Shown: positions 16,367-18,397 of the stretch, piece after piece
Numbering within the stretch: the first letter of the stretch is position 1
Layout of the letters: the number at the start of each line of letters is the position of its first letter
Source: Candidatus Riflebacteria bacterium HGW-Riflebacteria-2
Lineage (GTDB): Bacteria > Muiribacteriota > Ozemobacteria > Ozemobacterales > Ozemobacteraceae
Length of the DNA stretch: 64,000 nucleotides
Reading direction: 5' to 3'
Assembly (NCBI GenBank): GCA_002839435.1
Contig: PGYA01000016.1
Coordinates: 1 to 64,000, forward strand
Made by a program: the position numbers and the translations under genes
Notes under the pieces: model-generated
The model's input: the letters and a program-made list of their open reading frames with translations, nothing else
What the model was told of the DNA's origin: nothing
The model's database searches: none

Positions 16367-18397
16367 ATGACAAGACTTAACTTCACTATCGAAAAGCAGG
16401 CACATGGTTCGCGGGCACGCGCTGCCAGATTCACTACGCTACACAGCGAGGTGATAACTCCTGTATTCATGCCGGTCGGAACCCGCGCCACGGTCAAAGG
16501 CATGACAGTAGAGAGTCTGGTCGAAACCGGTTCGCAGGTGCTGCTGGCCAACACCTACCACCTGCTGTTGCGCCCCGGCCCTGAAGTGTTCAGAAAAATC
16601 GGGGGCATTCATCGTTTCATGAACTGGCGAGGCTCTGTCCTTACTGATTCGGGCGGCTTTCAGATCTTTTCGTTGCCGCGCTCGCGCGAAATGACCGAAG
16701 AAGGCGCCAGGTTCACCAGTTATGTCGATGGCAAAACTTTTTTGCTGACGCCTGAACTGAGCATCGATACTCAGAAAGCCATCGGCAGCGATATCATGAT
16801 GGTGCTCGATCAGTGCATAAATTCAACCGCCGGATACGACGAAGCTAATGCTGCCATGGAACTGACACATCGCTGGGCTTTGCGTTCGCTGGCCGCCCGC
16901 GGTGATTCTAAGCAGGCCATGTTCGGAATAGTGCAGGGTGCCTGCCACCCTGAGCTCCGCCGCCAGAGCGCCGAATTTCTGCGCGAGCAGCCATTTGACG
17001 GTCTGGCAATCGGTGGACTTGCGGTTGGCGAAACGAACAGTGAACGTTATGACTTTACCGAGCTGGTGACCGGTTTTTTGCCCGAAAACCTGCCGCGCTA
17101 TCTCATGGGTGTCGGCACGCCGATTGACATTCTCGAAGCCGTTCATCGCGGCGTCGATATGTTCGACTGCATTATTCCGTCGCAACTGGCGCATCGTGGA
17201 TCGGTATTTACATCGCATGGCAAGCTGCAGTTCAGACGCACGGTTTATCGGTTCGATGAAGATCCGATCGATGCCGGGTGCGACTGCTACGCCTGCAAAA
17301 ACTATTCGCGCGCCTACGTGCACCACCTGGTCAAGGCAGAAGAACCCCTGGCCTGGCGGCTCCTCACCTGCCACAATATAAGATTTTACCATCGCCTGAT
17401 GGCGCAGATCAGAGATGCAATTTTGCGCGGCCGCTTTGTCGAGTTCTACGAAAAAATGCGCCCCGAATTGATCCGTGACGATGAAGACAACCCGCAGAAT
17501 CCGCCGAAACGACGCAATAACAACCCACCTTCTTTAGGCGATTACGAAGTAGTCCGGTTTGCTCAAGGCTTTTCAAGTATCCGTCAGCGCAGTTCCGGTG
17601 AAATAATGCATTCGGTCAACAGGCCGGTAGAAGAGGCCGAAAAACTCTACGTTGGGCAGTCGCACCTGGCCGATCGCCTTATAAAGCATGCCGACAGCGA
17701 CAAAGAACTGGTAGTCTGGGATGTCGGACTTGGCGCCGCAACCAATGCCATGGCAGCTGTACACTGCTTTGAAAAAACTCTGGCCAAGCTTGGTGCTGAC
17801 CAAGTCAGACCGCTGCGGCTGATCAGTTTCGAATGCGACCTGGATCCGCTGACACTGGCCTGCCGTGACAATTCACATTTTCACTACCTGCGCCACAGTG
17901 CACCTCATCACATATTGCGCAAAGGTAGCTGGCAGCACAGTTCACAGCAGCTGAACTGGGAACTGGCCAAAGGCGACTTTCTCGAACTGTTCTGGAAAGC
18001 TCCGACACCTGACCTGGTTTTTTATGACCCGTTCTCGGCCAAGACTGACAGCGAACTATGGACCAGTGAAACCTTTTCGTTGTTGTATAAAAACCTGACA
18101 GAGCGCAGCGTCGAGCTTTACACCTATTCGGCAGCAACGGCCGTGCGCGTTGCCATGCTACGCGCCGGTTTTTTCGTCGCAGAGGGTATTGCGACCGGCC
18201 CCAAATCTGCTACAACCATAGCATTCAATCGTGCCGACGGGGCAGGGCAACACCCGCAGCGACCACCCCTGCTTGACGCCCGCTGGCTTGAGCGCTGGCG
18301 GCGAAGTGGTTCGCGATTTCCGCCCGCCGCTTCCCTACACGAAAAAGAACAGATAACCGCTGCCATCGAGTCTCATCCGCAGTTCAAGCTTACTTAG
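16367..18397 (+). CDS. tgt: Queuine tRNA-ribosyltransferase (residues 1-~375) fused to a C-terminal MnmC(m)-like SAM-dependent methyltransferase domain (Methyltransf_30/DUF752, residues ~415-676).
   Basis: Tgt zinc site '[17 protein letters not shown]'; '[13 protein letters not shown]'; '[10 protein letters not shown]'. The C-terminal domain aligns with E. coli MnmC residues ~50-245: '[14 protein letters not shown]', '[13 protein letters not shown]', and '[24 protein letters not shown]...[20 protein letters not shown]' matching '[20 protein letters not shown]...[20 protein letters not shown]'. Confidence 0.8.

Follow-up and report, generated by a model that had tools for sequence, protein, structure and literature searches.

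A tRNA-guanine transglycosylase fused to an MnmC2-type methyltransferase: a widespread bacterial gene and candidate two-step wobble-base enzyme

The contig PGYA01000016.1 of Candidatus Riflebacteria bacterium HGW-Riflebacteria-2 (assembly GCA_002839435.1) was analyzed over positions 1 to 64,000 of its forward strand, and this whole 64-kb stretch is hereafter called the window. At 16367..18397 on the plus strand it contains a single 676-aa open reading frame (ORF), with an ATG start, no internal stop, and a TAG end, that joins a bacterial tRNA-guanine transglycosylase (Tgt) to a methyltransferase of the MnmC2/DUF752 type; the domain order is Tgt, a 26-aa linker, and the methyltransferase of ∼285 aa, and the C-terminal extension beyond Tgt amounts to 310 aa. 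Two Pfam domains were detected in the protein, TGT (PF01702, aa 16-365, E 1.4e-143) and Methyltransf_30 (PF05430, aa 512-619, 48.5 bits against a gathering cutoff of 22), the same two that had been expected in an initial annotation made from the sequence letters alone. The Tgt equivalog model TIGR00430 was also exceeded (452 bits against a cutoff of 306.75), whereas the MnmC2 equivalog-domain model NF033855 gave a collinear match at aa 408-606 that remained below its cutoff (68 bits for the full protein and 71 bits for the domain alone, against 136). The uninterrupted 676-aa ORF and the complete Tgt described in the initial annotation were thus both recovered, and the zinc-site string that it quoted lies at aa 305-321. 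The parts of the fusion are as follows:

16367..18397, plus strand: complete fusion gene (Tgt, linker, and methyltransferase), from the ORF call, Pfam, NCBIfam, and 81 loci with the same continuous ORF
16367..17461, plus strand: Tgt domain, aa 1-365, a bacterial preQ1-type tRNA-guanine(34) transglycosylase by TIGR00430, its closest solved relatives being bacterial TGTs (E 1e-106)
17462..17539, plus strand: linker, aa 366-391, rich in proline and charged residues, with an AlphaFold2 predicted local distance difference test (pLDDT) score of <50 at aa 378-384; its sequence differs between fusions, none of which lacks it
17540..18241, plus strand: MnmC2/DUF752-type core, aa 392-625, of a predicted S-adenosylmethionine (SAM)-dependent N-methyltransferase, from PF05430, NF033855, 3vyw, hhalign, AlphaFold2, and Foldseek
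18242..18394, plus strand: subfamily-specific C-terminal tail, aa 626-676, with WLxRWxRS and HPQF; W640, S647, and Q672 are invariant and R643, W644, R646, and F673 nearly so

The fusion is not peculiar to this genome. Among the best 120 database relatives, nearly all were 640-750 aa long and carried both Pfam domains, the one exception being a 557-aa partial protein; their sources were Riflebacteria, Opitutaceae including the cultured Oleiharenicola lentus, and metagenome-assembled genomes (MAGs) labeled Spirochaetes and Deltaproteobacteria. The closest named relatives were Riflebacteria MAGs, at 86-87% identity to the window protein, and the Opitutaceae relatives were 66-68% identical. A scan with one genome per species placed the methyltransferase domain in at least 586 species from several phyla, and among the carriers are Leptospira ilyithenensis, a Peredibacter with a complete chromosome, Chthoniobacterales, Steroidobacteraceae, and many Bdellovibrionota. 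Cultured carriers are Lacunisphaera limnophila IG16b, O. lentus, Peredibacter sp. HCB2-198, and L. ilyithenensis. In the loci that were fetched, TGT lay in frame directly upstream of the methyltransferase almost everywhere; 81 loci held a single continuous ORF across both domains, and 70 of these were complete at the N-terminus (spans of 647-701 aa) and are the basis of all invariance counts given below. Identity to the window across the 70 fusions was 60-74% for the Tgt domain and 42-61% for the C-terminal domain, and the correlation between the two (r = 0.70) suggests that the fusion protein evolves as a unit. Since the same uninterrupted ORF occurs in 81 independent assemblies, an assembly or frameshift artifact is ruled out for practical purposes, and the split into tgt and a separate gene that the initial annotation had allowed for was not seen in these assembled sequences. 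The fusion is confirmed as real, old, and stable; it has passed between phyla in one piece and has hardly ever been split.

The features of the Tgt domain, with residues in Zymomonas mobilis (Zm) numbering where marked, are as follows:

16646..16663, plus strand: DSGGFQ, the Zm Asp102 region of the guanine/preQ1 pocket, by alignment to solved TGTs and in the 70 fusions
16805..16816, plus strand: LDQC, with Zm Asp156 and Cys158, from the same alignments
17012..17032, plus strand: GGLAVGE, with Zm Gly230-Leu231-Ala232-Val233, from the same alignments
17105..17128, plus strand: MGVGTPID, compared with MGVGKP(D/E)D of solved bacterial TGTs (Zm K264 replaced by T), from the E. coli and Z. mobilis alignments
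17165..17200, plus strand: catalytic Asp280, then a helix in place of PTRxxRNG (R286 to Q, R289 to H/Q, N290 to R), from the alignments and the 70 fusions
17279..17374, plus strand: zinc site C305, C307, C310 ... H336 (CxCxxC...H), invariant in 70/70 fusions

All 70 Tgt domains share Zm D102, S103, Q107, D156, C158, Q203, G230, L231, V233, E235, M260, and D280, together with the four zinc ligands. In the window protein, D94, D148, and D267 align with the catalytic Asp102, Asp156, and Asp280, and C150 and V220 with Cys158 and Val233, which we take to be the residues of bacterial specificity for preQ1 (7-aminomethyl-7-deazaguanine), as opposed to the Val/Gly of eukaryotes. Judged by sequence, the Tgt half has a bacterial preQ1-type active site and is predicted to exchange G34 for preQ1 in tRNAs with GUN anticodons. 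Compared with E. coli Tgt (b0406) and Z. mobilis Tgt, the catalytic Asp residues, the Cys158/Val233 pocket, and the zinc site are identical, whereas K264, R286, R289, and N290 are all replaced in the fusions. Position 264 is T in 66 of the 70 and M in the other four, but never K; position 286 is Q, A, S, or L and position 289 is Q, K, H, or G in every case, neither ever being R. The window has T, Q, and H at these three positions, at which both E. coli and Z. mobilis TGT keep the canonical basic residues, and the segment that reads PTRxxRNG in solved TGTs reads PSQLA(H/Q)RG in the fusions, with N290 likewise replaced family-wide. K264, R286, and R289 presumably face the anticodon loop in the TGT-RNA complex, and their loss may be an adaptation to the hand-over of tRNA between the two domains.

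For MnmC2/DUF752 enzymes, motifs I to VI and the roles of their residues were defined in Aquifex by Kitamura et al. (PMC3527978), and the window domain contains them, together with an N-terminal motif of its own subfamily, in the following positions:

17597..17614, plus strand: GEIMHS, an N-terminal subfamily motif aligned to DVYFS of E. coli MnmC; E412 and H415 invariant, M414 in 69/70
17720..17746, plus strand: motif I, the (GX)GXGXN SAM-binding loop; D452, G454, G456, and N460 invariant
17825..17833, plus strand: motif II, SFE, equivalent of Glu133 (SAM ribose contact); E489 invariant
17972..17980, plus strand: motif III, GDF, equivalent of Asp174 (adenine N6 contact); D537 in 69/70
18026..18037, plus strand: motif IV, DPFS, with the catalytic Asp (E. 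coli D178, Aquifex D193) and Phe; D554 in 70/70, F556 in 69/70
18122..18130, plus strand: motif VI, TYS, with a putative base-stacking aromatic residue (Aquifex Tyr225, E. coli Phe210); Y587 invariant

The stand-alone MnmC2 of Aquifex aeolicus (3VYW) was the sole sequence match of this domain in the PDB as well as its best fold match, and has, like the window domain, extra N- and C-terminal modules around the Rossmann core. Profile-profile alignment to the MnmC2 domain of E. coli MnmC by hhalign gave 95% probability at 25% identity with all motifs in register, and the register of D554-P-F556 agrees with both references. The AlphaFold2 model of the domain alone was confident (pLDDT 90, predicted template-modeling score (pTM) 0.89), and its best nine Foldseek matches in the PDB were all MnmC2 or MnmC (E 6e-13 to 1e-9), followed by the folds of m4(2)C synthase and spermidine synthases at ∼1e-7. 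By hidden Markov models, profile-profile comparison, predicted fold, and published motifs, the assignment of the C-terminal domain as an MnmC2-type aminomethyl N-methyltransferase is supported, as is the collinearity with the Methyltransf_30/DUF752 domain of MnmC that the initial annotation had proposed. The domain nevertheless differs from Aquifex MnmC2, which is free-standing and has 5-aminomethyl(-2-thio)uridine at position 34 (nm5(s2)U34) as its demonstrated substrate, whereas the window domain falls below the NF033855 cutoff. The conserved Glu202 of Aquifex has no conserved equivalent in the fusions (E563 in the window; A in 25, G in 13, E in 12, and P in 9 are the commonest residues across the 70), and the GE-x-MHS motif and HPQF tail are distinct to the subfamily. 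This tail of ∼50 aa is helical in the AlphaFold2 model and also occurs in free-standing members of the subfamily. Conservation of all catalytic, SAM-binding, substrate-stacking, and zinc residues across the 70 fusions suggests that both activities are under selection.

Free-standing members were sought exhaustively among 1.84 billion representatives, which gave 216 clusters at E ≤1e-30, and within these clusters genuine free-standing proteins of 270-298 aa had the same motifs and tail at 35-45% identity. The contexts of seven such members comprised one coupled to tgt, one 5 kb from a fusion, and five unlinked to tgt. In the coupled case (L091), a separate tgt (2-850) ends 8 nt inside the methyltransferase gene (843-1670), the product of which is ∼38% identical to the window C-terminal domain; this Tgt keeps K264 and has lost both R286 and R289, and the pair represents either natural translationally coupled genes or a frameshift on a 1.7-kb contig. 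In the second case, a Bdellovibrionota MAG contig (L017), a full fusion (2972-4993) is accompanied 5 kb downstream by a free 278-aa methyltransferase (9986-10822) that starts with LGDYEV...GFSSIRQ, as in the fused domain, and that, judging by this sequence, may have arisen through duplication or splitting of the fusion. In one of the five unlinked cases, on the JGI contig that carries P0373 (genes at 5841-6545 and 6575-7441), the free-standing methyltransferase lies next to, and is divergent from, a gene with UPF0176_N and rhodanese domains (TrhO-like, of the tRNA U34 hydroxylase type). Other candidates were rejected: three short matches that appeared to stand alone (P0195, P0197, and P0199) had neighbors that were also fragmented and were assigned to frameshifted fusions in error-prone assemblies rather than natural splits, and ∼250-aa “proteins” called from an internal Met were fusions cut off on ∼1-kb contigs.

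The gene adjoining the fusion in the window, and the region between them, are as follows:

15285..15974, minus strand: YhhQ-family queuosine-precursor transporter, divergent from the fusion, by TIGR00697 (225 bits against a cutoff of 51) and Pfam Vut_1
15975..16366, no strand: intergenic region of 392 bp between yhhQ and the fusion, examined by Rfam and promoter scans

The initial annotation had named the divergent neighbor as a YhhQ transporter and had remarked that queA and queG do not lie nearby, and both statements agree with the results, although the E. coli-specific YhhQ model NF008406 was not reached (54 bits against 252). No riboswitch, including the preQ1 class, was matched in the intergenic region by Rfam at the gathering threshold or at E ≤1, and neither promoter-like sites nor terminators there exceeded the expectation from shuffling or chance. 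Among window ORFs of ≥150 aa there was no queA, queG, queH, queCDEF, or mnmE/G/A/C, and E. coli QueA had no tblastn match in the 64 kb. Neither QueA nor the MnmC oxidase was encoded near the fusions in 1.36 Mb of loci plus the window, a sample of ∼0.5% of each genome that is uninformative on genome-wide presence. In E. coli, queA lies directly upstream of tgt, whereas no fused gene has queA within 10 kb on either side, a weak negative. In seven Bdellovibrionota loci of Bacteriovoracaceae type (L017, L019, L028, L043, L050, L055, and L064), the gene immediately preceding the fusion is of the TruA type (2162-2950 in L017, with a 21-nt gap), and this arrangement pairs two anticodon-arm enzymes in one lineage; the TruA-type tRNA pseudouridine synthase of the window (59884-60630, minus strand) is 42 kb from the fusion.

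The Tgt-MnmC2 architecture has been catalogued once and is uncharacterized as an enzyme. “TGT+MnmC2” fusions were listed in one line, without interpretation, function, or experiment, as one of several MnmC2 fusion types, with WP_046298500.1, WP_069963108.1, and WP_096055212.1 as the entries in supplement S3 (bioRxiv 10.1101/2023.12.21.572861); the initial annotation, which knew of no characterized enzyme of this kind, was correct apart from this listing. These proteins have the same two-domain architecture as the window protein (680-696 aa) and come from Opitutaceae, whereas the window copy comes from Riflebacteria and has a YhhQ neighbor. A functional parallel is offered by the bifunctional MnmC of E. 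coli (3AWI, 3PS9), in which an MnmC2-type domain, with its D-x-F, motif I, and stacking aromatic residue in register with those of the window, is likewise fused to a partner. There the partner is MnmC1, a flavin adenine dinucleotide (FAD) oxidase that creates the aminomethyl substrate of the methyltransferase, and this provides a model for how the window fusion may work; the partner in the window is Tgt instead, the order is reversed (the methyltransferase being C-terminal), and the acceptor base would be a 7-deazaguanine rather than a uridine.

The reading we favor, at a probability of about 0.45, is that the fusion is a two-step wobble-base enzyme in which Tgt would insert preQ1 and the tethered domain would then N-methylate it. 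preQ1 bears the same aminomethyl group at the same tRNA position as the MnmC2 substrate, the narrow pocket of MnmC2 has been described as suited to an aminomethyl adduct (PMC3527978), and the Q-type (GUN) and mnm5s2U-type (UUN) tRNAs share U at position 35. In the first step, the Tgt domain would swap G34 of GUN-anticodon tRNAs for preQ1, and the window organism could be supplied with preQ1 or preQ0 by import through the adjacent YhhQ transporter. In the second step, the MnmC2-type domain would methylate the 7-aminomethyl nitrogen of the new preQ1-34 with SAM, the invariant Asp of D-x-F deprotonating this primary aminomethyl nitrogen on the wobble base as in the characterized relatives, and the flexible linker would let the methyltransferase catch the anticodon loop on its release from Tgt. 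The product in tRNA would be 7-(methylaminomethyl)-7-deazaguanosine. This model is favored by the persistence of the fusion across phyla, the same chemistry at the same position, the precedent of MnmC, and the remodeling of Tgt wherever the methyltransferase is associated with it. Opitutus terrae, Akkermansia, Coraliomargarita, and Methylacidiphilum have no COG4121 (MnmC-family) protein (bioRxiv 10.1101/2023.12.21.572861), which suggests that in the Verrucomicrobia the domain enters only together with Tgt.

The proposed base has a natural counterpart outside RNA, as N-methyl-preQ1 is known, though only from phage DNA, as mdPreQ1, the product of DpdM, which is unrelated to MnmC2 (PMC10516641). 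In both cases 7-(methylaminomethyl)-7-deazaguanine would follow the insertion of preQ1 by a transglycosylase; however, DpdM is a DUF3109/YkgJ-type Cys-rich metal protein acting on DNA, described as homologous to E. coli YkgJ, and has no likeness to the MnmC2 fold (PMC10516641). Homology between DpdM and the window protein was rejected, Pfam finding only TGT and Methyltransf_30 in the latter and no DUF3109. The O. lentus locus (L001) encodes a CxxCxxCC protein of PF03692 at 18769-19107, ∼7 kb downstream of the fusion and beside rsmH; PF03692 is the YkgJ family, and the resemblance to DpdM/YkgJ is probably a coincidence.

Several observations weigh against methylation of preQ1. Nothing in the methyltransferase sequence points to a purine-sized pocket, and Y587 aligns with Tyr225 of the uridine-specific enzyme, leaving the stacking residue unchanged. 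Five of the seven free-standing members lie away from tgt. The full-length AlphaFold2 model, in which both domains are confident and the linker is disordered (pTM 0.54), fixes no inter-domain geometry. YhhQ adjoins the fusion in none of 88 other loci, so that this adjacency is confined to the lineage of the window, and clustering of 1531 flanking ORFs yielded lineage-level synteny only and no conserved neighbor. MnmC2 is also fused to the apparently unrelated YhdJ and MqnD (bioRxiv 10.1101/2023.12.21.572861), which makes fusion alone weak evidence for a shared substrate, and no report of methylated preQ1 in tRNA was found in the literature searched. Finally, no COG4121 protein other than the fusion is encoded by the complete genomes of three Opitutaceae (Verrucomicrobia bacterium IMCC26134, Lacunisphaera limnophila, and Verrucomicrobia bacterium HZ-65), which have MnmA/E/G and lack MnmC1 and YtqA (bioRxiv 10.1101/2023.12.21.572861); in these genomes the fusion could thus be a plain MnmC2 of the Aquifex-style route from nm5s2U to mnm5s2U.

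This last possibility, generalized, is the strongest alternative and comes close to equal in probability to preQ1 methylation. The C-terminal domain would be an ordinary MnmC2 converting nm5(s2)U34 to mnm5(s2)U34 on Lys/Glu/Gln-type tRNAs, where MnmEG would form the nm5 group directly, by the ammonium route known from Aquifex, while Tgt would separately make preQ1-34 and the fusion would merely co-express the two. The conservation of all MnmC2 catalytic and substrate-stacking residues and the MnmC2/MnmC identity of the nine best fold matches fit this alternative well, as do the mostly tgt-unlinked free-standing members, one of them beside a TrhO-like U34 enzyme. Orphan mnmC(m) genes are, moreover, common (PMC9976899), and the authors who listed the fusion, among MnmC2 fusions to other unrelated partners, filed it within the MnmC (COG4121) family (bioRxiv 10.1101/2023.12.21.572861). 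On the other side, the domain reaches only 68-71 bits where the MnmC2 equivalog model requires 136, and both the N-terminal motif and the C-terminal tail are peculiar to the subfamily. If the activities were independent, fission should be neutral and frequent, yet none of the 81 in-frame loci is interrupted, and the seeming splits on long contigs were traced to frameshifts; the family-wide change of putative RNA-facing Tgt residues would also be left without explanation. Verrucomicrobial relatives do without any MnmC, and mnmC(o) and mnmC(m) occur together in the pathogens Leptospira interrogans and L. borgpetersenii (PMC9976899 Table S6), so the fusion in L. ilyithenensis may be an extra copy.

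The remaining alternatives fare much worse. The acceptor might be another 7-deazaguanine amine, either the secondary amine that epoxyqueuosine or queuosine carries once QueA has acted (yielding N-methyl-Q) or free preQ1 before its insertion; the arguments from fusion and chemistry apply here as they do to preQ1-34, but we regard this as improbable. The Tgt pocket is of the unmodified Cys158/Val233 type in 70/70 fusions; a base enlarged by an N-methyl group would hardly fit into such a bacterial pocket, so that methylation ahead of insertion is disfavored. No queA was seen near any fusion. Characterized MnmC2 enzymes use a primary amine in tRNA as the acceptor, not free bases or secondary amines (PMC3527978), whereas for DpdM the choice between free and incorporated preQ1 was left open (PMC10516641). 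Least probable is a non-catalytic RNA-binding or dimerization module that compensates for the basic residues lost from Tgt at 264, 286, and 289, for although the tail is rich in Arg and Trp (WLxRWxRS), the retention of D452, G454, G456, N460, E489, D554, and Y587 in 70/70 fusions and of D537 and F556 in 69/70 is unexpected for a degenerate domain.

Methylation of preQ1, the favored reading, is to be regarded as plausible but unproven, the evidence for preQ1 as the acceptor (fusion persistence, analogous chemistry, and remodeled putative RNA-facing Tgt residues) being circumstantial. The N-methylated preQ1 that the initial annotation had suggested stands in part: both domains are complete, intact, and fused, but the acceptor is inferred, the YhhQ adjacency that it had pointed to is lineage-bound, and the ordinary-MnmC2 explanation is a close competitor. 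More tentatively still, at least 586 species, among them cultured Opitutaceae, Bdellovibrionota, and a Leptospira, may make the undescribed tRNA nucleoside 7-(methylaminomethyl)-7-deazaguanosine-34 by means of a self-contained, horizontally mobile two-step enzyme, possibly in place of queuosine.

Other genes in the window were recorded as side observations. The fusion is followed after an 86-nt gap by a gene (18484-20958, plus strand) for an 824-aa bacterial MVP-like protein, in which the Major Vault Protein shoulder domain scores 108 bits and is accompanied by a Vault_3 repeat and a weak match to SPFH/Band_7. Two B12-binding radical SAM genes that overlap in tandem (22710-24065 and 24035-25384, both minus strand) have sub-threshold likeness to HpnJ, PhpK, and BchE-type methylases, and a PilZ-domain protein is encoded just upstream of the pair (21237-22691). 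At 11354-13165 (minus strand) lies a gene for a 603-aa secreted Peptidase_C25 (gingipain-type) protease with a propeptide domain, and at 1988-2800 (minus) and 1994-2794 (plus) are near-coextensive opposite-strand ORFs of 270 and 266 aa, the minus-strand one without a Pfam match. The region is also rich in signaling genes, including two GGDEF diguanylate cyclases, a hybrid histidine kinase/response-regulator cluster, PilZ, and CheW (27701-29257 and 42116-44179, plus strand; 4717-8178, minus strand), as is common in large environmental genomes, and this has no connection with the fusion.

Queuosine-family wobble bases tune the decoding of NAU/NAC codons, and to our knowledge the only bacterial route onward from preQ1 is through QueA and then QueG/H. 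If methylation of preQ1 is true, hundreds of environmental species would have a natural tRNA nucleoside that is new and, with it, a further branch of the 7-deazaguanine pathway; the MnmC2 scaffold would have been retargeted from a pyrimidine to a purine analogue, and RNA would have its own equivalent of mdPreQ1 in phage DNA, produced by an enzyme unrelated to DpdM. Should the domain prove to be an ordinary MnmC2, it would be the only mnm5U methyltransferase of those genomes, concealed in a gene named tgt, which matters for annotation, as the fusions are at present annotated as “Tgt” only or counted as “MnmC2” in phyletic surveys. Several carriers are in culture, so either answer is directly testable.

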